Notes under the pieces: model-generated
What the model saw: the letters and a program-made list of their open reading frames with translations, nothing else
What the model was told of the DNA's origin: nothing
The model's database searches: none
In this document: piece by piece, positions 511 to 42,227 of the stretch
Position numbering within the stretch: position 1 is the stretch's first letter
Layout: the number at the start of each line of letters is the position of its first letter
Position numbers and translations under genes: made by a program
Assembly (NCBI GenBank): GCA_964638985.1
Contig: CAZXCD010000005.1
Span: 1-43,427 of the forward strand
Direction of reading: 5' to 3'
From: an uncultured Candidatus Saccharibacteria bacterium
Lineage (GTDB): Bacteria; Patescibacteriota; Minisyncoccia; Phycocordibacterales; UBA9973
Length of the DNA: 43,427 bases

Positions 511-592
511 TTAAATAAAACCTGTCCCGTACTAAATTTTTGAGCAAAAAATATGACCACTATTATTAATAATTTAAAATTTTAGTACTGGG

Positions 593-1048
593 ATGCCCAA
601 AGTATTCACATCAAAAACACAAAAAATAGGGGAAATTGGAGAAAACATAGCGGTAAGGTTTCTCGTGAAACATGGTTTTTTAATATTAGAAAGAAATTAT
701 ACTAAAAAATGGGGAGAAATAGACATAGTTGCTGAAAAAGCCAACAAACTGTATTTTGTGGAAGTGAAAAGTGTTTCCCGTGAAACATTAAACACGTTCA
801 TTCCAAAATCTTATAATGATTCTGACGAGAGGTATCAGCACAGGCCAGAAGACAATATGCACCCCTGGAAACTAAAAAGATTATCAAGGACAATACAGAC
901 ATATCTTTTATCCAAAAGAATCCCCCTCGGCCATAGCCCTACGGGCGAGGCAGATGAAAAAGAGTGGCAGGTAGATCTGCTTGTTGTTTATCTGTGTCAA
1001 AAAGAAAAAAAAGCAAGAGTAAAAGTAGTCAGCGACATCATTTTATGA
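593..1048 (+). CDS. yraN: YraN/UPF0102 family endonuclease-like protein
   Basis: The N-terminal pattern GEIGENIAVRFLVKHGF..ILERNY...GEIDIVA....YFVEVKS is typical of the family. At 151 aa it is longer than I expect for this family. Confidence 0.7.
   Translation: MPKVFTSKTQKIGEIGENIAVRFLVKHGFLILERNYTKKWGEIDIVAEKANKLYFVEVKSVSRETLNTFIPKSYNDSDERYQHRPEDNMHPWKLKRLSRTIQTYLLSKRIPLGHSPTGEADEKEWQVDLLVVYLCQKEKKARVKVVSDIIL
658..671. repeat. GTTTCTCGTGAAAC (copy 3 of the palindromic motif, inside yraN)
   Basis: Read directly; one central mismatch from a perfect palindrome. Confidence 0.7.
772..787. repeat. TGTTTCCCGTGAAACA (copy 4 of the palindromic motif, inside yraN)
   Basis: Read directly; one central mismatch from a perfect palindrome. 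Confidence 0.7.
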
Positions 1049-6783: not shown

Positions 6784-8820
6784 ATGCAACATCTGGCAGG
6801 GCTAAATAAAGAACAAAGAGAGGCGGCGCTTCATATGGAAGGTCCGCTTCTTATTGTCGCCGGAGCAGGAGCGGGGAAAACCAAGACTATTACGCACAGA
6901 ATAGTAAATTTGATAAAAAATGGAGTCGCTCCCGAAAAAATTCTGGCCGTTACTTTCACCAACAAGGCTGCGAAGGAAATGCGGGAAAGAATTATCGCGG
7001 AAATCCAAAAAAATGCCAAGGGGCAGGACAAAATCCCTTTTGTTTCCACTTTTCACTCGCTGGGAGTCTACATAATAAAGGAAAATGCTCGATTACTGGG
7101 ATTGACTAAATATTTCACTATTTTAGATGAGGGCGATGCGACAACTTTAATAAAAAATATATTGAAAGAGCTAGGCATAGACCCAAAACAATACGACCCC
7201 AAGAAAATAAAAAATATAATCTCGCGAGAGAAGGAAAAATTCGTGCATTTGTCCGACTATGCGGAAGGAGCCAGTGACACTTTGGGGAAAATAGTGGCGC
7301 AAGTGTGGAATCTATACGAAAAGCAAAAAATGAAAGAAAACTCCCTGGATTTTGATGATTTGCTCTTAAAAGCGACAAAATTGTTGAAAGAAAATGCGGA
7401 AATAAGGAAAATTTATCAGGAAAAATGGGACTACATACATATAGATGAGTATCAAGACACCAACGAAGTGCAATATTTGATGTCTAAACTGCTTTCGGAA
7501 AACAATAACAACATTTGTGTCGTGGGGGACCCAGATCAGTGTATATATTCATGGCGTCAAGCAGACATGAGAAATATCTTAAACTTCGAAAAAGACTACA
7601 GAGATGCAAAAATAATTTTATTGGAGCAGAATTACCGCTCCACGAAGAACATCCTGGAAGCAGCCAATGAAATAATAAAGAAAAATAAGTACCGTCCGGA
7701 CAAAAATTTATTTACCGACAACGTGGTGGGAGAAAAAATAGGACTCTATGAAGCGCTGGATGAAACCGACGAAGCGGAATTCGTAGCGACAAAAATTCTG
7801 GAAATTATGGATGGTCCACACCCTCCCCAAACCCCTCCCTCCGCGGGGGGGGAGGAATCCTCTCCCCCTGCGAAGGGGGAGTGCCACGACTTGAGTCGAG
7901 GCGAGGGGGTGAATCCCTCCGAAATTGCTCTGTTATACCGCGCGAACTTTCAATCCCGAGCACTGGAAGAAGCGATGCTTCGTTACAACATCCCATATCA
8001 AGTTCTGGGTGTGAAATTTTTTAAAAGAAAAGAAATCAAAGATACCCTTGCGTACCTCCGCGCCGCCTTGAACCCCGACAGCCTTTCGGATATAAAAAGA
8101 ATAATAAATTTCCCTGTACGAGGAATAGGTAAAGTCACCTTGGTGAAAATCTTTGCCAACGAGATTGAGAGTCTGCCGATAAAAGTCCGAATAAAAATTA
8201 ATAACTTTTATCAAATTCTAGAAGAAATAAAGGAAAAAATTAAAACTGCCAAGGCGAGTGAGGTAATAAAGTTCGTGGTAAAGAAGTCCGGGATTGAGCA
8301 AGAACTTCTAAACGGGGGAGAAGAGGATATAGAGAGATTGGAGAACATTAAAGAACTCGCCACTCTAGCGCTCAAATACGACAATCTGGAAAATGGTACA
8401 GGGATAGAAAAGCTTTTAGAAGATGGTGCCCTAGCTTCAGACCAAGATAGCTTAATGATAAATCAAGATAAGTCTGAGCGAGGACTACCCTCGCTCAAAA
8501 ACGGAGTGAAATTGATGACAGTCCACGCCTCAAAAGGTCTTGAATTCAAATACGTTTTTGTCACTGGACTGGAAGACGGACTCTTCCCACACGAAAGACA
8601 AAATGAGAGACAGGCAGGCGAAGACCGAGAAGAAGAGCGCCGACTTTTCTATGTAGCACTCACTCGCGCCAAAGAAAAATTATTTTTATCCTTTGCGAAT
8701 TTCCGCACTATTTTCGGCTCCCGCCAAATAAATGCTCCATCAGAATTCATCTCTGACATCCCAGCAGATTTATTAGAAAAGGAAGGCGAAACTAGCGGAA
8801 TAAAGACGATTTATCTATAA
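6784..8820 (+). CDS. pcrA: ATP-dependent DNA helicase PcrA/UvrD (SF1)
   Basis: Walker A AGAGAGKTKT, DEYQDTN, VVGDPDQCIYSWRQA, NYRST, VHASKGLEF, RRLFYVALTRAK. Confidence 0.9.
   Translation: MQHLAGLNKEQREAALHMEGPLLIVAGAGAGKTKTITHRIVNLIKNGVAPEKILAVTFTNKAAKEMRERIIAEIQKNAKGQDKIPFVSTFHSLGVYIIKENARLLGLTKYFTILDEGDATTLIKNILKELGIDPKQYDPKKIKNIISREKEKFVHLSDYAEGASDTLGKIVAQVWNLYEKQKMKENSLDFDDLLLKATKLLKENAEIRKIYQEKWDYIHIDEYQDTNEVQYLMSKLLSENNNNICVVGDPDQCIYSWRQADMRNILNFEKDYRDAKIILLEQNYRSTKNILEAANEIIKKNKYRPDKNLFTDNVVGEKIGLYEALDETDEAEFVATKILEIMDGPHPPQTPPSAGGEESSPPAKGECHDLSRGEGVNPSEIALLYRANFQSRALEEAMLRYNIPYQVLGVKFFKRKEIKDTLAYLRAALNPDSLSDIKRIINFPVRGIGKVTLVKIFANEIESLPIKVRIKINNFYQILEEIKEKIKTAKASEVIKFVVKKSGIEQELLNGGEEDIERLENIKELATLALKYDNLENGTGIEKLLEDGALASDQDSLMINQDKSERGLPSLKNGVKLMTVHASKGLEFKYVFVTGLEDGLFPHERQNERQAGEDREEERRLFYVALTRAKEKLFLSFANFRTIFGSRQINAPSEFISDIPADLLEKEGETSGIKTIYL
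7817..7911 (+). repeat. GC-rich multi-hairpin element, family A, in-frame in pcrA
   Basis: Ends CACACCCTCCCC...GAGGGGGTG. Internal hairpins include CTCCCCC-TGCGAA-GGGGGAG and CGAC-TTGA-GTCG. Encodes PHPPQTPPSAGGEESSPPAKGECHDLSRGEGV. Confidence 0.8.
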
Positions 8821-8835
8821 TGAAAGGAATATTAT

Positions 8836-10377
8836 ATGAAAATTTTTAACAAACAAGCACTCTATGTATTAAGCTCCTTTCTGGCCGGATTTTCTGTGCT
8901 GGTCGTTGAATTAATTTCAAGCAGAATTGTGGCCCCAATCATCGGTTCCTCAGTCTTCACTTGGACATCGGTCATAGGCATAACCCTGCTCGGACTGGCT
9001 GTAGGTAGCTATTTCGGCGGGCAAATAGCGGACAAAACAGATGCGGAAAAGTCTCTTCCTTTAGCATTTCTCATCTCGGCAATATTAGTTTCTTTAATTC
9101 CCACATTAGCCAGAAATACTGATTTTATTACAAATTCGTCTGATTCCATATTAAAATTAAATTTATATTTATCTTTATATCTCTTTTTACTTCCGACACT
9201 GGCAATAGGACTCATCCAACCGATAATCCTAAAAAGATTTGCTAATGATTTTTCAAAAATCGGTAGCGAGTATGGGACATTGTCCTTCGCCTGGTCGTTT
9301 GGCGGTATCCTTGGTGTATTTTTAACTGGATTTTTTTTCATCTCGTATATTGGAAGCAAAGAAACAATCTGGTTGATGTCTGCCGTGTTGTTCTTGGTGG
9401 GAATAATTTTCGCCTTTAAAAATAAACGGGTCCTTTTGCTTTTTGTTTTGACGATAATTTTCGTGCCAATGATTTTATATTTTACACAGCAAGAAACACC
9501 AAATCCTAAAATAATCTTTCAAAAAGAAACGGATTATTATAATGCAAAAGTTGTTGACACCCATCTTTCTTCATATGGGGATTCCAGAATTTTAGTTCTT
9601 GATTTTGATTTTCACAGCATTGAACCGGAGAAGAAAGTAGAGTATTACCCGGAAATATATCCTGTTTTTGCCAATTTAAAAGAGAATATAAAAGATATTC
9701 TTGTCATTGGCGCCGGAGCATATACAATGCCTAAACATTTTAAAAATTATTATAAAGACACGGATGTCTCAGTCGTTGAGTTGGACCCGGAAATGATCAG
9801 CGTTGGCAACGCTTTTTTTGATTTGGAAAAATATAACATAAAAACAATTGTAGGAGACGCGAAGGTCGTTATAAATAAAAATGAAGAAAAATATGACGTA
9901 ATTTTTGGTGACGCTTATAATTCTTTCATTTCAGTGCCTTGGTATTTATTAACCAAAGAATGGAACGATGAGGTAAAAAACAAATTAAAAGAAAACGGGA
10001 TTTATGCGGTAAATTTTATCGGCTCAATCTCAGAAGCAAAGTCTTTGTTTGCAAACAGTGTATTAAATACATTCAAGATCAGTTTTCCTAATTTTTATGT
10101 ATTCGCTTTTGGCGTTAAACCCGAATACACACAAAATATCGTATTGGTAGGAATCAATGGGGAACTTCCTCTCAGTGATACAGAGCTCCGCCAAAAATTA
10201 TTATTGGGAGAAAATAGTTTTTTGGCAGAAAAAATAATTTCAGCTGAATTTTTTAAGGGACCAGCTCCTGTAATCCTCACAGATAACTTTTCCCCTGTGG
10301 AAAAGTTAATGGAGCCGACAATAAAAAGTTTTTTCCCAAAAAACTTATCGGAGATAAAAGATATTCTGTCTTTATGA
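8836..10377 (+). CDS. fused polytopic membrane domain / spermidine synthase-like methyltransferase-fold protein
   Basis: About 7 N-terminal TM helices, then a SpeE-like fold (VIGAGAYT, VVELDPEM, GDAKVV, IFGDAYNS). Confidence 0.65.
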   Translation: MKIFNKQALYVLSSFLAGFSVLVVELISSRIVAPIIGSSVFTWTSVIGITLLGLAVGSYFGGQIADKTDAEKSLPLAFLISAILVSLIPTLARNTDFITNSSDSILKLNLYLSLYLFLLPTLAIGLIQPIILKRFANDFSKIGSEYGTLSFAWSFGGILGVFLTGFFFISYIGSKETIWLMSAVLFLVGIIFAFKNKRVLLLFVLTIIFVPMILYFTQQETPNPKIIFQKETDYYNAKVVDTHLSSYGDSRILVLDFDFHSIEPEKKVEYYPEIYPVFANLKENIKDILVIGAGAYTMPKHFKNYYKDTDVSVVELDPEMISVGNAFFDLEKYNIKTIVGDAKVVINKNEEKYDVIFGDAYNSFISVPWYLLTKEWNDEVKNKLKENGIYAVNFIGSISEAKSLFANSVLNTFKISFPNFYVFAFGVKPEYTQNIVLVGINGELPLSDTELRQKLLLGENSFLAEKIISAEFFKGPAPVILTDNFSPVEKLMEPTIKSFFPKNLSEIKDILSL

Positions 10378-11222
10378 AAGCAAAAAAATCATTGGGGCAA
10401 AATTTTTTAAAGTCGGAGATTGCGCTCAAGAAGATTGTTGAAGCGGGAGAAATAAAAAAGAGCGACGTGATTTTGGAAATCGGCCCAGGGAAAGGAGCGC
10501 TCACAGAAAAACTGTTAGCTTCTGGCTGTCAGCTTGTAGCTGTGGAGAAAGATCGAGATTTATATGAATTATTGAAAGATAAATTTCAGAAAGAAATTGC
10601 GGAAGGAAAATTAGTTTTGTTAAACGAAGACATACTTAAATTTCAAATTTCCAATTTCAAATTTCCAAAATATAAAATCATCGCCAACATTCCTTACAAC
10701 ATCACCGGCGCGATTTTAAAAAAATTTTTAACAGAAAAAAATCAGCCGGAAAGAATGATTTTGATGGTCCAGCGCGAAGTGGCGGGGAGAATAATCGCCC
10801 GCGATGGGAAGGAAAGCATTCTTTCAATGTCAGTCAAGGCTTACGGGGAACCAAAAATGATAATGAAGGTAAATAAAAGATATTTCTCTCCAGCGCCCAA
10901 AGTTGATTCCGCGATAATTGAAATAAAAAATATTTCGAGAAAAAATTTTCCTCCCCTCCTTGTGGAGGAGGGGGCAGGGGGTGGTGATTCAAAGAGATTA
11001 CCACCTCGCCCTTCGGGCACTCCTCCTCAAAAAAGAGGAGAGGGGACATTCGAGGAAAAATTTTGGGAAATAGTAAAAACCGGCTTTGCGCACAAACGTA
11101 AAAAACTTTCTTCAAACCTAAAAGGATTAATTTCTCCCCAAAAACTGTCTTCGGTAAACCTAGGTGACAAAAGGGCGGAAGATTTGGCTCTTTCAGACTG
11201 GATAAACCTAGCTAAAAACTAG
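10374..11222 (+). CDS. rsmA: 16S rRNA (adenine1518/1519-N6)-dimethyltransferase RsmA/KsgA
   Basis: LGQNFL, EIGPGKGALT, ANIPYNIT, and C-terminal FAHKRKKL. The ATGA start overlaps the upstream stop. Confidence 0.9.
   Translation: MKAKKSLGQNFLKSEIALKKIVEAGEIKKSDVILEIGPGKGALTEKLLASGCQLVAVEKDRDLYELLKDKFQKEIAEGKLVLLNEDILKFQISNFKFPKYKIIANIPYNITGAILKKFLTEKNQPERMILMVQREVAGRIIARDGKESILSMSVKAYGEPKMIMKVNKRYFSPAPKVDSAIIEIKNISRKNFPPLLVEEGAGGGDSKRLPPRPSGTPPQKRGEGTFEEKFWEIVKTGFAHKRKKLSSNLKGLISPQKLSSVNLGDKRAEDLALSDWINLAKN
10950..11046 (+). repeat. GC-rich multi-hairpin element, family B, in-frame in rsmA
   Basis: CCTCC-TTGT-GGAGG, GGTGG..CCACC and CCTCCTC-A6-GAGGAG hairpins. Encodes PLLVEEGAGGGDSKRLPPRPSGTPPQKRGEG. 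About 80% identical by eye to the copy at 24122-24216. Confidence 0.8.
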
Positions 11223-18493: not shown

Positions 18494-18919
18494 ATGCAGT
18501 TCAAGGTACCTCAATTTTTAGACATAGAGGACAAAATATTCGGCCCCTTTACTTTTAGGGAGTTTGCTTATTTGGCCGGTGGCGCAGGTCTGTGCTTCGT
18601 CCTTTACAAATTGCTTGGGCTTATTTTCGGAGCCATCCCTATTTTAATTATCGCCGGGTTTTCCATCGCCCTGACTTTCTACAAACCAAACAACAAACCC
18701 TTCATCAATATGATAGAGGCGGGATTTAAATATTTTACCCAAAACAAGCTTTATATTTGGAAAAAGCATGCGGGCAAAACCTCACCTCCAGCCCCTCTCC
18801 CGAGAGGAGAGAGTGGCGAAAAGCCGGGTGAGGTGGGTTCAAAATTAAACGGGAGCAGACTCCGAGACTTGGCGTGGAGTCTGGACGTTTTGGATTTAAG
18901 TAAACAAAAAAAGAGTTAA
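18494..18919 (+). CDS. PrgI-like (VirB3-analogue) T4SS membrane protein
   Basis: N-terminus MQFKVPQFLDIEDKIFGPFTFREF followed by two TM helices, as I recall for the PrgI family. It sits immediately upstream of the VirB4-like genes. Confidence 0.6.
   Translation: MQFKVPQFLDIEDKIFGPFTFREFAYLAGGAGLCFVLYKLLGLIFGAIPILIIAGFSIALTFYKPNNKPFINMIEAGFKYFTQNKLYIWKKHAGKTSPPAPLPRGESGEKPGEVGSKLNGSRLRDLAWSLDVLDLSKQKKS
18779..18834 (+). repeat. GC-rich hairpin element, family C, in-frame in the prgI-like gene
   Basis: Terminal inverted repeat ACCTCACC...GGTGAGGT encloses CCTCTCC-CGAGA-GGAGAGA. Encodes TSPPAPLPRGESGEKPGEV. Confidence 0.75.
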
Positions 18920-19566: not shown

Positions 19567-21417
19567 ATGGACTTTTTTAAAAAATTATTAGGTGGGAAAA
19601 AAGCGACGGAAGAAAAGGAAGTGAGAGCTTCTGTCTTGGCGGTGATGCCAGAAGAAATTTATCAGTCCGCCACCCTGGAACTCCAAGATGTCATCGCACC
19701 ATCAGCTTTAAAAATCGCCTCCAAATCCATAAGTCTGGGAGATAAAATTGCTCGCACTTTTTTTATTATTTCTTACCCTAGATTCCTGACGGACAATTGG
19801 TTTTCTCCCATAATCAACTTAGATAAGGTTTTTGATATTTCCATTTTCATCCATCCGATAGACACCTCCCTAGTACTCCGACAATTCCAGAAAAAAGTCG
19901 CCGAAGTACAGAGCCAGATAAGTGTGCGCGAAGCGAAGGGAATGGTGCGCGACCCGATGCTTGATACCGCTTATCAAGATTTGGAAGGGCTCCGCAACAA
20001 TTTGATTCAAGCGCAAGAAAAAATGTTTGACGTGGGCATTTACATTACAATTTATGCCGACAACGAACTGGAACTTTTCAAAATAGAAAATGAGATAAAA
20101 TCAATCCTGGAATCAAAGCTCATCTACATCAAACCGGCGCTCTTCCAACAGGAAGATGGTTTCAAGAGCGTTATCCCCATAAACACAGACCTGCTCGGCA
20201 TTCATCAGAAGTTGAATTCTGAACCGCTTAGTAGCGTCTTCCCATTTATCTCCTTTGACCTGACCTCCGACAAAGGTATACTCTACGGCATCAACAGACA
20301 CAACTCCAGTCTGGTCATCTTTGACAGATTTTCTTTGGAAAATTACAACTCAGTAACCTTCGCCAAGTCCGGCTCCGGAAAATCTTACGCAACAAAATTG
20401 GAAATCTTAAGATCGCTAATGTTTGACGTGGATGTCATTGTGATAGACCCGGAGAGGGAATATGAATTCTTGTCGGAGGCCGTGGGGGGAAGATATTTTA
20501 ATATTTCTCTTTCTTCAGACCACCACATCAATCCTTTTGACCTGCCCATCCCGCACGAAGATGAAACAGCCGAGGATGTTTTGCGTTCAAACATAATAAA
20601 CTTGGTAGGACTTTTCAGATTGATGTTGGGCGGACTGACTCCCGAAGAAGATTCAATGGTGGACCGAGCTATTTCCGAAACTTACGCCATGAAAGATATC
20701 ACTCCCGAGTCTGATTTCTCAAACATTGAGCCTCCGCTTCTCTCAGACTTTGAGTTGGTGCTCGGAGGAATGGACGGAAGCGATTCAATAGTCACCAGGT
20801 TGGCGAAATATACGCGCGGTTCTTGGGCGACATTCTTAAACAGACCATCCAATGTGGATATCAACAAAAAATTCGTGGTATTTTCCGTCCGTGACATGGA
20901 GGACGAACTGAAACCAGTAGCCATGTACATCATTATGCATTACATCTGGAATACGATAAGAAAAAATCTAAAAAAACGCTTACTGGTCGTAGACGAGGCC
21001 TGGTGGATGATGAAATCCGAAGACACCGCGTCATTCTTGTACTCTATCGCCAAGAGAGGCAGAAAATATTACCTGGGTCTTTCCACCATCACCCAAGACG
21101 CGGCAGACTTTATGAAGTCTCCATATGGTGTGCCTATCATTACCAACTCTTCCATTCAGCTTCTCCTCAAACAATCGCCCACTACTATAGATATTTTGCA
21201 AAAAACCTTCAACCTTACAGATGAAGAAAAATATTTGCTCTTGGAATCCGGACTCGGGGAGGGCATCTTCTTCGCGGGGTTAAAACACGTCGCCATAAAG
21301 GTTATTTCTTCTTACACAGAAGACCAGATAATCACCTCAGACCCTTCACAGATACTTTCAAATAGAAAAGCCAAGGAAGAGCAGGAACGGGCGGAGACTG
21401 AAAGAACCTCACCCTAG
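19567..21417 (+). CDS. virB4: VirB4-like T4SS ATPase (central and C-terminal ATPase part)
   Basis: Walker A FAKSGSGKSYATK, Walker B LLVVDEAWWMM, and the IAPSALK....FFIISYPRFL pattern typical of VirB4/TraC-like proteins. Confidence 0.85.
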   Translation: MDFFKKLLGGKKATEEKEVRASVLAVMPEEIYQSATLELQDVIAPSALKIASKSISLGDKIARTFFIISYPRFLTDNWFSPIINLDKVFDISIFIHPIDTSLVLRQFQKKVAEVQSQISVREAKGMVRDPMLDTAYQDLEGLRNNLIQAQEKMFDVGIYITIYADNELELFKIENEIKSILESKLIYIKPALFQQEDGFKSVIPINTDLLGIHQKLNSEPLSSVFPFISFDLTSDKGILYGINRHNSSLVIFDRFSLENYNSVTFAKSGSGKSYATKLEILRSLMFDVDVIVIDPEREYEFLSEAVGGRYFNISLSSDHHINPFDLPIPHEDETAEDVLRSNIINLVGLFRLMLGGLTPEEDSMVDRAISETYAMKDITPESDFSNIEPPLLSDFELVLGGMDGSDSIVTRLAKYTRGSWATFLNRPSNVDINKKFVVFSVRDMEDELKPVAMYIIMHYIWNTIRKNLKKRLLVVDEAWWMMKSEDTASFLYSIAKRGRKYYLGLSTITQDAADFMKSPYGVPIITNSSIQLLLKQSPTTIDILQKTFNLTDEEKYLLLESGLGEGIFFAGLKHVAIKVISSYTEDQIITSDPSQILSNRKAKEEQERAETERTSP

Positions 21418-21484
21418 CCCTCTCCTGGAAGGAGAGGGGGAAATTAGTCCCTTCCCATTCCAGGGGAAGGCGGGGGATGAGGTT
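21405..21484 (+). repeat. GC-rich hairpin element, family C (full copy), overlapping the virB4 stop codon
   Basis: Perfect terminal inverted repeat AACCTCA...TGAGGTT. Inner hairpins CCCTCTCC-TGGAA-GGAGAGGG and CCTTCCC-N7-GGGAAGG. The virB4 TAG lies inside the element. Confidence 0.8.
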
Positions 21485-21516
21485 AGCATTAGGAAATGCT
21501 ATAATAATCACAAGTT

Positions 21517-22511: not shown

Positions 22512-23804
22512 ATGATTTTATTAAATCAAATGAAAAAACTTTTTATTTACATTTCAATACTAATAGTAATAACCGGAATATTTAGTCCAATATTTAAAAC
22601 AGAAGCGGCAGATCCTCAGATGGGGACTTGTACCTACACGTATGAATCCTATGGTAAACCTGTTATTGAAAAAACTCGTACCATAAAAGATAATTGTAAA
22701 GGACCAGATAGGGTGTGGGAACCGGATACTGCTCCATCAGCAGACACAGCACTAGGAACTTGTACCTACACGTATGAATCCTATGGTACTCAAAAATTTG
22801 AACTTACTCGCACCTTTAAAACTAATTGCACTGGAGCAGACAGAACCTGGAAGGAATCAACGCTGGCAGAATTTCAAGCAGAAAAAGCTGCCAAGGAAGG
22901 CACTGGCGGTGAAAAAGATGATGGTTTTGTGGGACCTCCAGATCCATATTATCATTTTTTAGCCCCATTACCTTGCGAACCAGGAACTCCCGATTGTGAC
23001 AGCAGTGGAAAACTTATAACCTTTGATCCTAGTGGAGAAAACAAAATAGGTGGGTATTTGAATGTAATGATACGAATATTCATTGGTATGTGCGCCGTGT
23101 TGGCGGTGATAATGATTGTCGTGGGGGGCATAGAATATATGACGAGTGAGTTGATATCAAATAAAGAAAATGGCAAACACCGGATTACCGGCGCAATCTT
23201 CGGACTTGTACTGGCCTTAGGAGCCTGGACGCTTCTAAATACAATCAATCCTGATTTATTGAAGACAGATTTAACAAGTTTGCAAAATGTAGAGGTGGTA
23301 GTAGATCTAGGTGGTGAAGGAAATACTCCACTCAATGAAACAACGATCCAAAATGATTTAAAAGGTGTCGGCATTGTTTGCCCTAAAGATGGTGGGGCTG
23401 GAGCACTTTCTGGAATTGCCCAATCTTATGTTGGACACTCAACTTATAGTATGGAAAAAAGAAATACCACAAGTGGAGGGATAGCTTATGTTGATTGTTC
23501 TTCTTATTTGAGTCAGGTCTATGTATGTGCGGGGCTTAGAAACCCTGGAGGTACCTCTCTTGGAATATTTGGCTCAGGAAGTACCCCTGTCACAAGCATT
23601 AGTACAGACGGAACAACAATAAATGGTGTGGCTCTAAAAATTGGTGACTTAATCGGATGGACCGCGGGTGGAAAAGAAAAATATGGCCATGTTATGATGT
23701 ATGTGGGTGGCGGAAAAATGATTGACGCACAAGGACAAGGTGGTGTAGCAATAAGGGCGGTAAGTTCCTACGCAGCAAGAATAAAATTTGTTAAAAAACT
23801 TTAA
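22512..23804 (+). CDS. fusion protein: tandem Cys modules + TrbC/VirB2-like pilin hairpin + NlpC/P60 cell-wall hydrolase
   Basis: Signal peptide. Two 44-aa repeats (GTCTYTYESYG...NC.G.DR.W). Two TM helices (IGGYLNVMIRIFIGMCAVLAVIMIVVGG / ITGAIFGLVLALGAWTLL). NlpC/P60 Cys (VDCSSYLSQVY) and His (GHVMMYVGGGKMIDA). Confidence 0.7.
   Translation: MILLNQMKKLFIYISILIVITGIFSPIFKTEAADPQMGTCTYTYESYGKPVIEKTRTIKDNCKGPDRVWEPDTAPSADTALGTCTYTYESYGTQKFELTRTFKTNCTGADRTWKESTLAEFQAEKAAKEGTGGEKDDGFVGPPDPYYHFLAPLPCEPGTPDCDSSGKLITFDPSGENKIGGYLNVMIRIFIGMCAVLAVIMIVVGGIEYMTSELISNKENGKHRITGAIFGLVLALGAWTLLNTINPDLLKTDLTSLQNVEVVVDLGGEGNTPLNETTIQNDLKGVGIVCPKDGGAGALSGIAQSYVGHSTYSMEKRNTTSGGIAYVDCSSYLSQVYVCAGLRNPGGTSLGIFGSGSTPVTSISTDGTTINGVALKIGDLIGWTAGGKEKYGHVMMYVGGGKMIDAQGQGGVAIRAVSSYAARIKFVKKL
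22626..22788 (+). repeat. intragenic tandem duplication (exact 31-mer ACTTGTACCTACACGTATGAATCCTATGGTA at 22626 and 22758, period 132 nt)
   Basis: Read directly. Corresponds to the duplicated 44-aa Cys module. Confidence 0.85.
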
Positions 23805-23808
23805 TTTT

Positions 23809-25191
23809 ATGTCAAAAAGAAACTTTATACTTTTAACAATAATCTTAACCATCATCGTGCTAGCAGTATTGGGATTTTTGTATTCACAGCGCAACGTGAC
23901 GACCCCCGGGGAAGACAGCTCCGGCACAAATTTCATTTCGCAATTTAACCCATTCGGGAGCGATAAGCCCACCCCCACTCCACCTGGAACAACCCCCACC
24001 GATGTTTCTGGTTACGAGCCTGGACCAGAACAAGAAGAAGTGAAGTTAAAAAAAGTTTCCAGTATGCCTGTAGCCGGTTTCACTGTCTATCCTAAAGAAA
24101 GATTGAAAGAGGTAGCAGTAGCTCCCCTCCTTGTGGAGGAGGGGGTTGGGGGTGGTGCTAGCTCTACAACACCACCTCCCCCTTCGGGTACTCCTCCTCA
24201 GAAAGGAGGAGAGGGATCCAAACCCACCCCACCAGCAACAGAGTTTGCATCTGCTCTCCGATATGTAGATAGGGTCACAGGAAATATTTACCAAACTTTC
24301 GCGGATAAAATAGAAGAGAGGAGGTTTTCAACCACAACGATACCTAAAGTATATGAAGCATTCTTTGGCAACAAAGGGACTTCTGTGGTGATGCGATATT
24401 TGAAAGAAGATAGTACAACCATTACGACTTTTGTCGGCAATCTCCCGAAAGAGCTACTCGGAGGGGACTCTACCGAGGACAATGAAATAAAGGGGGTGTT
24501 CTTACCGGAAGATGTGCGGGATGTAAGTCTATCCCAAGATGCCGGAAGCATTTTTTATCTGTTTAATGTTGGAGAAAACATCGTGGGTACGACTTTAGGC
24601 TTAACCACCAATAAAAAATCCCAAATTTTTGATTCACCTTTTACCGAATGGCTGTCCCGGTGGCCGAATAACAAACTAATCACTCTCACCACCAAACCCG
24701 CCTCCGGAGTTCCCGGATACGTGTATGGGATAGACCTGCTAAACAACAAAAATTTACGCCAAATCTTCGGTAATATAAACGGGTTGACTACACTCACGAG
24801 CCCTAATGGCAAATTGATTCTTTATGGAAATGATGGTTTATCTCTAGGTATTTATCACACGGACACAAAAGTATCGGAATCGCTTGGAATAAAAACTCTG
24901 CCGGAAAAATGTGTTTGGGGAATGGCTAGTGATGTAGTTTATTGTGGAGTACCTGGATCCATAGCTGGGGCGGGTTATCCTGATGCCTGGTATCGCGGAG
25001 AAGTATCTTTCGTAGATCAAATTTGGAAAATAGATATAACTTCCGGAAATGCCACCCTCCTTGTAGACCCGATGACAACAGAAGGAGGGGAGGAAGTGGA
25101 TAGTATAAAACTTGCGCTAGATGCAGACGAAAATTATTTATTTTTTGTAAACAAAAAAGATTCCTTTCTTTGGGAACTTAAATTAAAATAA
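23809..25191 (+). CDS. membrane-anchored hypothetical protein, possibly beta-propeller-like
   Basis: ATG 23809 gives a signal-anchor (MSKRNFILLTIILTIIVLAVLGF). The ORF-track TTG start at 23788 overlaps the upstream gene. Carries a family B insert. Confidence 0.55.
   Translation: MSKRNFILLTIILTIIVLAVLGFLYSQRNVTTPGEDSSGTNFISQFNPFGSDKPTPTPPGTTPTDVSGYEPGPEQEEVKLKKVSSMPVAGFTVYPKERLKEVAVAPLLVEEGVGGGASSTTPPPPSGTPPQKGGEGSKPTPPATEFASALRYVDRVTGNIYQTFADKIEERRFSTTTIPKVYEAFFGNKGTSVVMRYLKEDSTTITTFVGNLPKELLGGDSTEDNEIKGVFLPEDVRDVSLSQDAGSIFYLFNVGENIVGTTLGLTTNKKSQIFDSPFTEWLSRWPNNKLITLTTKPASGVPGYVYGIDLLNNKNLRQIFGNINGLTTLTSPNGKLILYGNDGLSLGIYHTDTKVSESLGIKTLPEKCVWGMASDVVYCGVPGSIAGAGYPDAWYRGEVSFVDQIWKIDITSGNATLLVDPMTTEGGEEVDSIKLALDADENYLFFVNKKDSFLWELKLK
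24122..24216 (+). repeat. GC-rich multi-hairpin element, family B, in-frame in ORF 23809
   Basis: Collinear with the rsmA copy. Encodes PLLVEEGVGGGASSTTPPPPSGTPPQKGGEG. Confidence 0.8.
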
Positions 25192-25192
25192 A

Positions 25193-25282
25193 TTCACCCT
25201 CCCCACTCCCTCCCTTCGCAGGGAGGGGACCTTCTCCCCCTGCGAAGGGAGGGAGTGCCTGAAAGGCAAGGGGGTGTTTGAA
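25193..25282 (+). repeat. GC-rich multi-hairpin element, family A, intergenic copy
   Basis: TTCACCCTCCCC...GGGGGTG ends, with CCCTCCC-TTCGCA-GGGAGGG and CTCCCCC-TGCGAA-GGGAGGGAG hairpins. Fills the whole 92-nt gap between the convergent ORF 23809 and jag. Confidence 0.8.
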
Positions 25283-25283
25283 T

Positions 25284-25817
25284 TTAAATAACCCCGACGT
25301 ATTTAATAACCACTCGGCGATCGCGCCCCATACCCATGGATTCGGTTTTGAGATCCGTCGCATCGGATAAAAACTCATGTACAATCCTGCGTTCAAAAGC
25401 GGACATCGGATCAACCTCTATGTTGGATTTGAAATATCTTGCTCTCTCGGACATCATATGCGCCACTGCGCGAACATTCTCCACGTGTTTTTTCTGAAAA
25501 CCATTTATGTCTATAATAATAGACCCTCCCCCCGCCCCTCCCTTCGCAGGGAGGGGAGACTCTTCTCCCCCTGCTAAGGGGGAGTGCTCCGACTCAGGTC
25601 GGAGTGAGGGGGTCTTGGCCTCAAGAATCCTATGCACAATATGATTTAACGCTTGTAATCCCTCGCCGTCATGCGAAATAAAAAAGTGCGGTTCATTTAC
25701 TTCCACTGAAATCCATATGTTTTTGGGTCCATCTTCCACCACCGAGACTTCATTTAGTTTCACTGTGGTTTTCTCAATTAATTCTTTTATTAACTTTTGT
25801 ATTTCTTCTTTATTCAT
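25284..25817 (-). CDS. jag: Jag/KhpB-like RNA-binding protein (KH + R3H)
   Basis: C-terminal R3H region (AFERRIVHEFL...DRRVVIKYV). Lies downstream of yidC. Confidence 0.8.
   Translation of the reverse strand: MNKEEIQKLIKELIEKTTVKLNEVSVVEDGPKNIWISVEVNEPHFFISHDGEGLQALNHIVHRILEAKTPSLRPESEHSPLAGGEESPLPAKGGAGGGSIIIDINGFQKKHVENVRAVAHMMSERARYFKSNIEVDPMSAFERRIVHEFLSDATDLKTESMGMGRDRRVVIKYVGVI
25522..25614 (+). repeat. GC-rich multi-hairpin element, family A, inside jag and read antisense to the pcrA copy
   Basis: 93 nt, ends GACCCTCCCC...GAGGGGGTC. Same hairpin order as 7817-7911 on the plus strand, but the host gene is on the minus strand. Encodes TPSLRPESEHSPLAGGEESPLPAKGGAGGGS. Confidence 0.8.
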
Positions 25818-36853: not shown

Positions 36854-36986
36854 TTCACCCCTCAGGCATTTCTATGCCAGCTCCCCTTCGCAGGGGAGCA
36901 AAAATCCAATACTAATATGAATCTTGATTACAGAGAATTTTTCCTCCCCTGCGAAGGGGAGGTGCCCGTTAGGGCGGAGGGGTGAA
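36854..36986 (+). repeat. GC-rich element, family A long form (two halves split by a 44-nt AT-rich spacer)
   Basis: TTCACCCCT...AGGGGTGAA termini. Hairpins GGCAT-N4-ATGCC, CTCCCC-TTCGCA-GGGGAG, CCTCCCC-TGCGAA-GGGGAGG. The right half encodes the C-terminal 18 aa of the DUF559 ORF. Confidence 0.75.
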
Positions 36987-37326
36987 TACAATCTTTTATT
37001 TTTTGCAGTACATTTTTTATATTTTTATCTATTTCACTATTCCAAAGTCTCAATACCTTTATTCCCAAGGTTTCTATATAGCTGTCTCTTTCTTTGTCGT
37101 ATTCTTTTTCATCTTTATGTTGAGCGCCGTCCAATTCAATTATTAAATTGTGTTCTTTGCAATAAAAATCAACAACGTACGGGCCTATCCCATGTTGTCT
37201 CCTAAATTTTACGCCCAATTTTTTATTTCTTAAAAAATGCCAAAGTTTAAGTTCTTGTGGAGTTGAAAATTTTCTCAATTCTTTTCTGCGAGGTAGAAAT
37301 TTAGATTTGTTAAATACTTCATACAT
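36928..37326 (-). CDS. DUF559 (Vsr-like / PD-(D/E)xK fold) endonuclease-domain protein
   Basis: STPQELKLWHFLRN...FRRQHGIGPYVVDFYC....LIIELDG.QH.....YD..RD.YIE..G..VLR is the classic DUF559 pattern. The longer ORF-track start at 37371 runs into a repeat terminus, so ATG 37326 is preferred. Confidence 0.8.
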   Translation of the reverse strand: MYEVFNKSKFLPRRKELRKFSTPQELKLWHFLRNKKLGVKFRRQHGIGPYVVDFYCKEHNLIIELDGAQHKDEKEYDKERDSYIETLGIKVLRLWNSEIDKNIKNVLQKIKDCIHPSALTGTSPSQGRKNSL

Positions 37327-37339
37327 ATATTTTAGTATA

Positions 37340-37478
37340 TCACCCCTCTGTTTTTTGATTACAAAAAACACCTCCCCTTCGCAGGGGAGGAAAAACCGCT
37401 AATCATATGTTTAGGGAGTATTTGCCTTTCCTGCGAAGGAAAGGTGGCTCTGTGTAATCACAGAGACGGAAAGGTGAA
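37340..37478 (+). repeat. GC-rich element, family A long form (degenerate)
   Basis: TCACCCCTC...AAGGTGAA termini. Hairpins TGTTTTTT-N6-AAAAAACA, CCTCCCC-TTCGCA-GGGGAGG, CCTTTCC-TGCGAA-GGAAAGG, CTCTGTG-TAAT-CACAGAG. Confidence 0.65.
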
Positions 37479-37503
37479 AGAATTTAGTATTTTTTATTCC
37501 TCA

Positions 37504-37531
37504 TTCACCCTTCGCAGGGGGAATTAGGTGG
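37504..37531 (+). repeat. solo hairpin TTCACCC-TTCGCA-GGGGGAA (family A fragment) downstream of pilB
   Basis: Read directly. About 20 nt beyond the pilB stop, so it could double as a terminator. Confidence 0.55.
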
Positions 37532-39734: not shown

Positions 39735-42227
39735 ATGTCTAAAGATAATAAAAGAGTAGTCTTATTGGATGCTCACGCCATAATACATCGCGCTTATCAT
39801 GCGTTGCCGGAGTTTTTGTCTTCAAAGGGTGAGCCGACGGGGGCGCTCTATGGTCTTTCTAGTATGTTGATGAAGATAGTTACTGATCTAAAACCGGACT
39901 ATATCGTCGCTTGTTATGATTTACCGCAAAAGACCTTCAGACACGAAGCTTATGACGCGTATAAAGCCGGACGAGCAAAGGTTGACGAGGCTCTAATTGT
40001 CCAGTTGCAGAATTCTCGGCAAATTTTTGAAGCTTTTAACATTCCCATTTACGATGCGCCGGGCTTTGAAGCGGATGATGTTTTGGGGACGATAGTAAGA
40101 CAATTTTACCCCCACCCAGCCTCCCCCTATGTAGGGGGAGGGGCTGAAAGCGGAGGGGGGATAGATATTATCATCGCTTCCGGAGATATGGATACGATGC
40201 AGTTGGTGGATGACAAAAAGGTCCAAGTTTATACCTTAAAAAAAGGAATTAACGATACTATTCTATACGACGAAGATGCTGTAGTGAAGCGTTTTCATTT
40301 CAAGCCGAAGCTTTTGCCGGACTATAAAGGTTTGCGCGGAGATCCTTCAGACAACATTATCGGCATCAAGGGTATAGGTGAAAAAACAGCAGAAACCTTG
40401 ATTATAAATTTTGGCACCATAGAAGAAATATACAAACAATTACGAATGGACAATTACGAATTACGATTTAAAGAGGCGGGTATTAGCCCTAGAATGATTG
40501 AGTTGCTAAAAAATAACGAAGAAGAAGCTTTGTTTTCAAAGACGTTGGCAACTATCCGCACGGATGCGCCGATAAATTTTTCTTTGCCGTCAAAAACTTT
40601 TTGGGAAAATGCGGATTTGAAGAAAATTGAAGAAGTTTTCGCGACGTTTGAATTTAGGAGCTTGCTCGGACGACTAAAAAACTTCTTTGAGAACAATGGG
40701 AAGGCAAATCTAGCAGAATTTTCTCAGGTCCTCGGTTCTCCGGGGCCCCAAACCCCGGCCAGACCATTCAAAAATTCTCTAGATTTACCGTCCCCAGAGA
40801 AAATCCAAGAAGCCAGTATTGCTCTATGGGTTATCAATTCCGAGATGTCCAATCCGAAACTGGAAGACATTTTGCTTTTTGCTCACACTGAATCTTTTGA
40901 GACGGCGTATAATTTTATTTTTACAAAACTGAAAGAGAAAAATCCCCGCCAGGGCGGGGCAAGCTTAGAAAAAGTATATGAGGAGATAGAAAAGCCGATA
41001 ATCCCCGTCGTAAAAGAAATGGAAAATCACGGTATTTTGGTAGATAAAAAATATTTTGAAAAATTATCGGAAGAGTATCATAAAGAGTTGGATATTTTAA
41101 CAAAAAAGATATACAGCCAGGCCGGCACCGAATTCAATATCAATTCCCCGAAGCAATTGGGTGAAATACTTTTTGGAAAATTAGGGATGAAGTCACCAGG
41201 AAAAAATAAAGCAAAAAAGAATGCCAGTGGCGCGTTTTCTACCAAGATTTCCGTTCTAGAAGAACTGGAAGGAGAGAATGAAATAATAAAAGAAATAATG
41301 GCTTATCGGGAACTGCAGAAACTGCTATCAACGTACATTGATGTTATCCCTAAAATGGCGGGAGAAGATGGTCGTCTTCACGCCAAATTTATCCAAAACG
41401 GTTCCACTACTGGAAGGTTCTCTTCCCAAGACCCGAATTTACAGAACTTGCCGATAAAAACGGAATTGGGTAAGAAAATTCGCAACGGCTTTGTCGCGCA
41501 AAAGGGACACAAGCTCACCGCTTTTGATTACAGCCAGATTGAACTGCGGGCGGCGGCGATGCTTTCAGGAGACAAAAAAATGACCCAAGTTTTCCGAGAG
41601 AGGAAAGATATTCACGCTGGGGTGGCCTCGTTTGTTTTTGGAGTGCCGATAGAGAAAGTGGATAGTGAAATGCGTCGCCAGGCGAAAGTGATAAACTTCG
41701 GAATTATTTATGGTATGGGGGTTTCCGCTTTGCGGAAAAATCTCGGAGGCACTCGTGAGGAAGCGCAGAAATTTTATGATAATTATTTTACTCAATTTTC
41801 CGGTGTGCGAGATTATCTGGAGGGGGTGAAAGTTTTCGCTGGGGAACATTCTTATACGGAAACCTTGTTTGGTCGTAGGCGATATTTCCCGAATATAAAT
41901 TCCAGAATTCCTTTTTTAAAAAATATGGCTGAACGTACCGCTACAAATGCCCCCATCCAAGGAACCGCCGCTGACATTATCAAGCTTGCCATCAGATACG
42001 CGGAAGAGGATTTGGAAAAGGCGGGGTTGTTGGGCAAGGTTCATCTGGTACTTCAAATTCACGACGAGTTGGTTTATGAGGTAGAAGAAAAAGTTTTGCC
42101 AGAAGCCGATAAAATAATAAAAGAAGCCATGGAAGGAGTGCTTTTGCGGTCATATTTGCGTTATAAAACGGATGTTCCACTCCTCGTACATTCTGGGTCA
42201 GGAGACAATTTAGGGGAAGTAAAATAA
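39735..42227 (+). CDS. polA: DNA polymerase I (5'-nuclease + family A polymerase domains)
   Basis: N-terminal 5'-3' exonuclease motifs (LLDAHAIIHRAYHA, GFEADDVLGT, SGDMDTMQL, GIKGIGEKTA). Pol A motifs (DYSQIELR, RRQAKVINFGIIYG, QIHDELV). Confidence 0.95.
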   Translation: MSKDNKRVVLLDAHAIIHRAYHALPEFLSSKGEPTGALYGLSSMLMKIVTDLKPDYIVACYDLPQKTFRHEAYDAYKAGRAKVDEALIVQLQNSRQIFEAFNIPIYDAPGFEADDVLGTIVRQFYPHPASPYVGGGAESGGGIDIIIASGDMDTMQLVDDKKVQVYTLKKGINDTILYDEDAVVKRFHFKPKLLPDYKGLRGDPSDNIIGIKGIGEKTAETLIINFGTIEEIYKQLRMDNYELRFKEAGISPRMIELLKNNEEEALFSKTLATIRTDAPINFSLPSKTFWENADLKKIEEVFATFEFRSLLGRLKNFFENNGKANLAEFSQVLGSPGPQTPARPFKNSLDLPSPEKIQEASIALWVINSEMSNPKLEDILLFAHTESFETAYNFIFTKLKEKNPRQGGASLEKVYEEIEKPIIPVVKEMENHGILVDKKYFEKLSEEYHKELDILTKKIYSQAGTEFNINSPKQLGEILFGKLGMKSPGKNKAKKNASGAFSTKISVLEELEGENEIIKEIMAYRELQKLLSTYIDVIPKMAGEDGRLHAKFIQNGSTTGRFSSQDPNLQNLPIKTELGKKIRNGFVAQKGHKLTAFDYSQIELRAAAMLSGDKKMTQVFRERKDIHAGVASFVFGVPIEKVDSEMRRQAKVINFGIIYGMGVSALRKNLGGTREEAQKFYDNYFTQFSGVRDYLEGVKVFAGEHSYTETLFGRRRYFPNINSRIPFLKNMAERTATNAPIQGTAADIIKLAIRYAEEDLEKAGLLGKVHLVLQIHDELVYEVEEKVLPEADKIIKEAMEGVLLRSYLRYKTDVPLLVHSGSGDNLGEVK
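40109..40160 (+). repeat. GC-rich hairpin element in-frame in the polA 5'-nuclease domain
   Basis: CCCCC...GGGGG outer arms and CAGCCTCCCCC-TATGTA-GGGGGAGG(GG)CTG hairpin. Encodes PHPASPYVGGGAESGGG. Confidence 0.75.
40947..40963 (+). repeat. 17-nt GC hairpin CGCCAGGGCGGGGCAAG (family D), in-frame in polA
   Basis: Exact match (opposite strand) to yebC 35036-35052. CCCCGC-CAGG-GCGGGG hairpin. Encodes NPRQGGA. Confidence 0.7.

Follow-up and report, generated by a model that had tools for sequence, protein, structure and literature searches.

The DNA analyzed here, a stretch of 43,427 nucleotides (nt) of contig CAZXCD010000005.1 (assembly GCA_964638985.1; hereafter, the window), contains a short hairpin-bearing element, designated family A, which is read in frame on one strand by pcrA and on the other strand by jag, and which occupies an intergenic spacer as well. 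The question raised by this locus is how one DNA element came to lie in two unrelated genes in opposite orientations while encoding nearly the same peptide in both. Most likely (a probability of roughly 80%), family A is a palindromic DNA repeat, modular, non-autonomous, and present in many copies, that belongs to Nomurabacteria/Paceibacterota within the Candidate Phyla Radiation (CPR), spreads, is tolerated in frame, and has a DUF559 nuclease as its partner. The analysis established the repeat family, its structure, its turnover between relatives, and its in-frame tolerance at disordered sites. Relatives of the PcrA and DUF559 proteins encoded in the window carry the names Candidatus Nomurabacteria or Paceibacterota, which places the source genome among the CPR/Patescibacteria.

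The three copies first noticed are collinear on the plus strand (7817-7911, 25193-25282, and 25522-25614), and alignment bore out the layout given in the initial annotation, in which, in each copy, CACCCTCCCC is followed by two hairpins, the first with a TTCGCA and the second with a TGCGAA loop, and then by a small hairpin and GGGGGTG. The first copy is read on the plus strand by pcrA, which encodes a UvrD/PcrA helicase (6784-8820, plus strand; Pfam UvrD-helicase, 1.7e-87, and UvrD_C, 5.5e-64), and accounts for the bulk of a 34-residue insert (PcrA residues 344-377; 7813-7914). The copy at 25522-25614 is read on the minus strand by a jag/khpB-like gene with an R3H domain (25284-25817, minus strand), located directly 3' of yidC in an rpmH-rnpA-yidD-yidC-jag cluster next to dnaA, and corresponds to approximately residues 68-99 of Jag, between the N-terminal part and the R3H domain. 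Translation of the pcrA copy from the plus strand yielded ...PSAGGEESSPPAKGE... and that of the jag copy from the minus strand yielded ...PLAGGEESPLPAKGG..., nearly equal cores, as had been claimed. The remaining copy (25193-25282, plus strand) exactly fills the 92-nt spacer between two convergent genes, that is, between the stop of the open reading frame (ORF) at 23788-25191 and the jag stop at 25284.

The pcrA and jag copies shared 79% identity over 91 nt, and the DNA folds of the three copies had z-scores of -3.3, -7.2, and -4.1 relative to dinucleotide shuffles. A profile built from related copies recovered all three at E = 2e-9 to 4e-14 in 0.3 Mb, so their resemblance was not due to chance. 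Six independent assemblies from groundwater of the Rifle type, among them the metagenome-assembled genome (MAG) GCA_001786735.1, encoded a Jag protein that matched that of the window at every residue; because the insertion was present in all six, it is not an assembly artefact. In an AlphaFold model of the window PcrA (mean predicted local distance difference test score, pLDDT, of 69, i.e., moderate), the insert (residues 345-374) was predicted as coil with pLDDT below 50 between regular elements, and residues 553-571, which correspond to a second insertion hotspot, were likewise a low-confidence coil between regular elements.

Additional family A copies were found by collection scans in 22 metagenome and 3 genome loci, all with a guanine-plus-cytosine (GC) content of 33-45%. 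The pattern used for the metagenomes was too strict and returned only these 22 loci; the first genome-collection scan, based on a 10-bp inverted repeat pattern, was swamped by unrelated repeats of Calothrix, Rahnella, and planctomycetes, and this loose scan nonetheless yielded three CPR loci and a Thiothrix locus. In heterocystous cyanobacteria (Calothrix, Tolypothrix, Spirirestis, and Scytonema; L007-L125), an unrelated hairpin repeat, whose arms are likewise CCTTCGCAGG / CCTGCGAAGG, was present in dozens of copies. No family A copy and no DUF559 relative was found in viral collections. MAG contigs terminate at family A copies (L003/L148, MFTD01000031.1), and the repeats fragment assemblies.

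The basic unit of family A is a module rather than a doublet. A module (approximately 45-50 nt) consists of the end motif (T)CACCCC, a small hairpin whose sequence is free, and a hairpin of 7-9 bp with a C-run and a G-run, which has TTCGCA as its loop on one strand and TGCGAA on the opposite strand. In the full element, two inverted modules flank a spacer in a REPIN-like manner, and the aligned copies followed the order CACCCC(T)C, small hairpin, first large hairpin (H1), spacer, second large hairpin (H2), small hairpin, and G(A)GGGGTG, with terminal inverted repeats of 7-9 bp (CACCCC(T)C ... G(A)GGGGTG). Full copies are 80-138 nt long with near-dyad symmetry, and the spacer between H1 and H2 is either short and GC-rich or AT-rich and up to 75 nt. 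Half elements, comprising the end motif, the small hairpin, and one large hairpin, are also found as single units, as tandems, or joined end to end.

The two large hairpins are maintained through paired C-G to T-A changes. In the H1 and H2 stems, 94.9% of the cells were paired and 57 cells carried double changes, compared with 20.8 in shuffles (0/500 shuffles as high); controls in which the partner was slid collapsed. G:T pairs were scarce in the stems, which fits a constraint acting at the DNA level or on both strands, or a mechanical "correction" of quasi-palindromes.

Even close relatives differ in their copies, which have been gained, lost, replaced, or inverted. No jag insert was present in L145 (42%-identical Jag), one module was present in the approximately 68-69% relatives L139 and L141, and the full element was found in 98% relatives and in L134, L135, and L142. 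The intergenic copy at 25193-25282 had an orthologous copy in the 88%-identical L134, L135, and L142, and the corresponding spacer of L139 and L141 held a different module. A single site of ORF 23788-25191 carried an element of another family, family B, in the window (24121-24215, plus strand, in frame), a short one-hairpin element in L142, and family A in L139. An intergenic hairpin element of a further family (CTCACCCTAGCC...GGGGGATGAGG; 21405-21488) was replaced by unrelated AT-rich sequence in the 88%-identical L142. A look-up with ribosomal protein L34 aimed at related origin regions returned only the same genome.

The clearest record of turnover came from PcrA, for which 120 orthologues at 74-100% identity were retrieved. 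Of these, 118 were compared at the insertion site, which is flanked by KILEI(L/M)D and LSEIAVLYRAN. Approximately 14 of the 118 had 2-7 residues at this site (e.g., P0035, P0007, and P0003/4), and the remaining approximately 100 had 25-65 residues falling into at least 12 peptide types. Even among relatives with 88-92% identical PcrA, P0003 and P0004 had 7 residues and P0002 carried a different family. At the DNA level, family A was inverted relative to the window in P0063/L151 and P0092/L152, with the same register throughout. A second family (108 nt) at the same site had a 63-nt core that was identical in L154 and L155 and lay in opposite orientations, its outer stems differing between the two with compensating changes; a 95% identical copy was located inside the gene for the CCA-adding enzyme of L154. 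A hammerhead-like motif (CTGACGAG) in this second family was considered and rejected, as its core, judged by eye, misfits the ribozyme consensus. Several peptide families of the main site were also seen at two further PcrA hotspots (approximately residues 75-83 and 561-565 in window numbering), and the orthologues P0005 (1,032 residues) and P0078 (1,073 residues) contained an intein (PF14890) in addition to small inserts.

The same turnover was observed at several sites of KsgA. The family B site of the window (10949-11044, plus strand, in frame in ksgA/rsmA, 10374-11222) was empty in L155 and L153, and other elements were present in L150 and L154. In L153, ksgA was split into two ORFs by a stop codon (8525-9304). 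The polA gene of L136 contained two family A modules in frame as an R-L fusion of half elements, with no DUF559 gene between them. In total, in-frame inserts were found in the unrelated host genes pcrA, jag, ksgA, polA, a PrgI-like gene, ORF 23788-25191, and the CCA-adding enzyme gene.

This pattern bears on a rival explanation in which the modules are functional cis-elements of the host, such as terminators or attenuators, mRNA stabilizers, or binding sites of nucleoid or repair proteins, with the genic copies as by-products. Several observations point that way, including the location of all four intergenic copies of the window 3' of the end of a gene, the exact fit of one of them to a convergent spacer, the conservation of stems through paired changes, and the 100% identity of the second-family core between genomes with only approximately 80% identical PcrA. 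However, a scan of both strands at 24900-25700 detected no terminator-like site, and no T-run follows the stems of the intergenic copy, so that the bidirectional terminator suggested in the initial annotation gained no support from the scan, although the copy may still act as one; the same elements lie in the middle of essential genes in both orientations, where a strong terminator would be harmful; and presence or absence among close relatives speaks against a fixed role. Taken together, a primary cis-regulatory function appears unlikely.

A second rival dispenses with mobility and regards each site as one ancient insertion or an expandable loop, altered by slippage, by template switching at quasi-palindromes, or by inversion between its own inverted ends. 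The second family of L154 and L155 would suit it, since inversion between flanking inverted repeats would produce a flipped core with compensating outer stems, and the compensating changes there reach into a Leu codon of the host; the scarcity of G:T pairs and the failure to find target-site duplications are also in its favor. Against it, near-identical copies turn up at unrelated places of one genome, both in genes and in spacers (family A does so in pcrA, in jag, and in intergenic DNA, and the second family in L154, where pcrA and the CCA-adding enzyme gene carry copies with 95% identity), close relatives have empty sites, and one and the same site is occupied by unrelated families. We therefore regard a history without any mobility as very improbable.

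The copies in coding sequence were examined by orientation and reading frame. According to the initial annotation, an element that stays open and encodes the same benign linker in both directions could insert into genes either way round. Occupation of genes in either orientation with a near-identical peptide was indeed found, at one pcrA site, where the window copy and the inverted copies of L151 and L152 face opposite ways. The claim of both orientations thus held, all of these copies being read in the same register, but the likeness of the peptides is a by-product of symmetry and not a special adaptation: the element approximates its own reverse complement and the mirrored register is used, so a similar peptide results. 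Two copies would share a register by chance in 1 of 3 cases.

Openness as a property of the element was mostly explained by base composition. In genic copies, 35 of 54 frames were open, whereas dinucleotide shuffles predicted 29.9; the mode of search guarantees one open frame in each of these copies. Intergenic copies had 57 of 96 open frames compared with 45.3 expected (P = 0.003), a modest excess that in effect represents one consensus, as these copies are homologous and not independent. The hairpins with C-runs and G-runs contain a stop codon in no frame; stop codons sit in the AT-rich spacers, which are restricted to intergenic copies. The census of orientation and frame thus yielded both orientations, one register for internal copies, and stop-free frames close to the number expected from composition.

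Within genes, the TGCGAA hairpin was read as P-A-K-G in 8/8 internal insertions and the TTCGCA hairpin mostly as (F/L/S)-A-G. In contrast, the module-derived C-terminal tails of DUF559 proteins used all three registers (PAKG, 7; PCEG, 4; PLRRG, approximately 15; SPSQG, 16), a difference with a Fisher P of approximately 3e-4 without correction for shared ancestry. The second family likewise kept to one register per orientation, although stop codons close just one of its six frames; those it leaves unused are Cys- and Arg-rich. That internal insertions are almost all in one register points to a filter acting on the peptide, not on stop codons. Genic copies were always in frame, adding approximately 25-35 residues rich in Pro, Gly, Ala, Ser, and Glu, and they sit at a few sites in predicted disordered loops or linkers. 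Approximately one-third of the copies examined lie within ORFs. At the protein level, a search of a 5.8-billion set with a six-frame concatenated query gave 865 candidates, none of them scored, which made a frame census of proteins impossible; a representative-library search with the 33-residue Jag insert, a short and low-complexity query, gave one weak match. An Rfam scan returned tRNAs only, with no family matching the inserts.

Removal of the inserts before protein synthesis in the manner of introns, or afterwards in the manner of inteins, which would make the encoded peptide irrelevant, can be dismissed almost entirely, for even though rRNA genes of CPR bacteria carry insertions and two PcrA orthologues bear genuine inteins elsewhere in the protein, the genic copies are in frame, stop-free, and of lengths divisible by three in more than 100 orthologues, the register preference is confined to internal copies, and the inserts span 25-35 residues with neither intein motifs nor an Rfam match.

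A candidate partner of the repeat family was found in the window itself. A gene for a DUF559 endonuclease (Vsr-like PD-(D/E)xK fold; 36928-37326, minus strand; Pfam DUF559, 7.8e-36; PDB 3HRL, 1.6e-20) has a full family A element on either side. The first (36856-36986; fold z = -9.6) has a long AT-rich spacer and provides the final 19 codons of the gene together with its stop, and the other (37341-37478; fold z = -7.1) lies 14 nt upstream of the start codon, followed by a partial module (CACCC TTCGCA GGGGG; 37500-37530). Module flanks recurred at the DUF559 genes of L035, L136, L144, L156, L158, L160, L162, and Thiothrix L045/L077, and DUF559 was bracketed by modules at every CPR homologue locus examined. 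Module-encoded tails ended 44 of 120 DUF559 homologues. Many homologues were on contigs of 0.6-3 kb, which is what flanking repeats would lead one to expect.

Four DUF559 loci were obtained through the protein alone and represented at least three contexts (NUDIX/ruvB/ruvC, a ribosomal protein operon, and a Pif1 helicase). All four had modules within 60 nt of the gene, and 7 of the 11 modules in their 23 kb lay within 100 nt of DUF559 (binomial P = 3e-8). In L162, the DUF559 gene is situated between an L-half and an R-half, i.e., inside the element, an arrangement that a parent element would be expected to show; around the genes of L160, L156, and the window, the halves face the opposite way. 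Candidatus Thiothrix moscowensis, the sole holder of a DUF559 homologue among 120 non-CPR loci (loose genome scan and L131), had tandem family-A-like elements on both sides of its gene (42% identical). The possibility that the link merely reflects a single orthologous locus was tried and overturned by the protein tails, the protein-anchored loci, and Thiothrix.

Elsewhere, in annotated replicons, modules of the CACCCC type were found next to DUF559 genes of Deinococcus (an 18-nt inverted repeat, CACCCCCCTCCCAGCCTC, and hairpins at the flanks), Azospirillum (a full two-hairpin element directly upstream), and PCC 7002 and Synechocystis (adjoining hairpin modules). The flanks were ambiguous in E. 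coli and Neisseria, and the annotation table for E. coli K-12 ycjD lists no repeat features. Predicted inversion targets, which are genes that inverted repeats flank or overlap, are enriched in DUF559 genes (PMC9881135), and the Vsr/DUF559 clade includes a homing endonuclease (PMC3424549). A literature search found no paper tying DUF559 to repeats and none on in-frame palindromes in CPR bacteria. DUF559 may be the partner of the repeat family. A broader proposal, that DUF559 and CACCCC-type modules form an undescribed, widespread repeat-plus-nuclease system (CPR, Thiothrix, Deinococcus, Azospirillum, and cyanobacteria) whose CPR modules colonized surface loops of core proteins with fast turnover at hotspots, is put forward tentatively. 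Another nuclease gene drew attention in L154 (7180-7600), where an 84-residue GIY-YIG gene is bracketed by inverted repeats CCCCCACACCTTT / AAAGGTGTGGGGG and a hairpin; this may be a second pairing of a nuclease with a repeat. Two other GIY-YIG genes had no such flanking repeats (one of three flanked).

In the mechanism that we propose, the element would spread as selfish DNA, and selection would purge all but harmless in-frame insertions, with the same outcome as for the palindromic elements of Rickettsia. The small Vsr-like DUF559 nuclease would act as partner enzyme, by analogy with RAYT genes bracketed by REP sequences, conceivably by nicking at or beside CACCCC on an extruded hairpin, with copying or repair synthesis to follow.

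Several points weigh against this interpretation. No consistent direct repeats were found at the junctions of approximately 20 copies, genic junctions varying by 0-8 nt, and neither the genes of the window nor the gene lists of the fetched loci contained a transposase, including the insertion-sequence type; transposition in the strict sense is therefore no more than a possibility. The perfect stems, with their few G:T pairs, could arise from template-switch "correction" of quasi-palindromes instead of selection, and the hotspots could reflect repeated change in situ of one old insertion instead of many insertions. In L134, the jag copy (approximately 1170-1180) has TAG where two other relatives have TCG, which would truncate Jag before the R3H domain; a null allele and a sequencing error are among the possible causes. 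Much of the association with DUF559 in CPR bacteria comes from one conserved neighborhood (ruvB/ruvC), and the modules beside non-CPR DUF559 genes are individual sightings. The insert peptides, in turn, are predicted from reading frames.

Among known systems, the Rickettsia palindromic elements (RPE-1 to RPE-10; Ogata et al., 2000, 2002; reviewed in PMC10969869) are comparable as short, multi-copy palindromes of a small-genome, host-dependent bacterium. They too lie in frame in unrelated housekeeping genes, leave the genes intact, and add a peptide loop, and orthologues hold different repeat groups at one locus; for RPE-4 as well as RPE-6 and RPE-7, the choice between "hotspot" and "common origin" was left undecided (PMC3767692). 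Unlike them, the CPR elements, presumably unrelated in sequence, are GC-rich islands in a 40% GC genome, are shorter (80-130 nt compared with 100-150 nt), consist of hairpin modules with a CACCCC end motif, occur in both orientations at one site, and have a nameable candidate partner gene (DUF559). Rickettsia genomes are AT-rich. The CPR elements were therefore classified as an analogue of RPEs and not as a member, since the lineage differs and GC-rich elements stand against AT-rich ones.

Repetitive extragenic palindromes (REPs) and the related BIMEs and REPINs (PMC2817692, PMC3116915, and PMC3337134) share with family A a short hairpin unit with a conserved end motif, arranged singly, as inverted doublets around a spacer, or in arrays. 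RAYT (TnpA-REP) loci resemble DUF559 loci in that one small nuclease-type gene is bracketed by cognate units, mostly in a conserved neighborhood. The bracketed gene, however, encodes a DUF559/Vsr-like PD-(D/E)xK nuclease and not a Y1 HUH transposase, and no Y1 transposase was found in the window or in those fetched loci with scanned genes or precomputed Pfam calls. The end motif also differs ((T)CACCCC / GGGGTG(A) compared with GTAG), and family A is often genic, whereas REPs are extragenic by definition.

Bacterial miniature inverted-repeat transposable elements (Correia, ERIC, BOX, and others; PMC10969869) are likewise small and non-autonomous, with terminal inverted repeats, stable folds, and occasional in-frame copies within ORFs. 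For family A, neither a target-site duplication nor a parent insertion sequence with a DDE transposase was found, and in-frame copies in core genes are far commoner. Homing endonucleases of the Vsr fold (I-Bth0305I type; PMC3424549) belong to the same fold clade as DUF559 and are also encoded by small selfish nuclease genes, but those genes sit within group I introns or inteins and have a single allele as their homing target, whereas the CPR DUF559 gene stands on its own with repeat modules on both sides, and the repeats lie scattered.

The window as a whole has a GC content of 40% and contains, besides the rpmH-rnpA-yidD-yidC-jag cluster beside dnaA-dnaN, a type IV secretion-like gene cluster, pcrA, ksgA, polA, ruvB, and four to five tRNAs. 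Family A is represented by six full or partial copies. Small hairpin elements were also found in frame in the PrgI-like gene (18780-18842, plus strand; gene at 18494-18919) and in polA (40106-40166, plus strand; gene at 39735-42227), and the fold z-scores of the window elements spanned -2.7 to -9.6. An 82-nt AT-rich element with inverted ends CCCGTACTAAATTTT / AAAATTTTAGTACTGGG was present in the window (520-601), in L135 (2233-2313), and in L142 (6961-7041); it was 91% identical in the 88% relatives, yet at a non-orthologous site (rpmH-rnpA spacer), and is another small mobile element. A GC-rich stretch of 37 nt (918-954) in a UPF0102/YraN-like gene (593-1048), where the Pfam UPF0102 match breaks, may be another small in-frame insert. 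Further, an island of 69% GC in this 40% GC genome (2285-2626) lies directly 3' of tRNA-Gly(tcc) (2143-2214), with a small plus-strand ORF (approximately 2388-2561) for an Ala/Pro-rich protein with a hydrophobic stretch and a canonical terminator (2586-2624); it looks horizontally acquired.

In-frame palindromes in core genes have so far been regarded as a peculiarity of Rickettsia and Wolbachia, and the CPR elements provide a second case, which involves presumably unrelated GC-rich elements, heavy turnover, and at least 12 insert types at one pcrA site. Where genomes are small and host-dependent, selfish hairpin DNA may accordingly share this fate in general. The practical effects include breaks in metagenome assemblies, inflated variation in protein length, and spurious low-complexity "domains" in CPR proteomes. 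If true, the link with DUF559 would give a very common domain of unknown function a testable role and would bring a second, mechanistically different class of enzyme into the REP-RAYT paradigm. What was noticed in pcrA and jag is the visible tip of a general feature of the clade.

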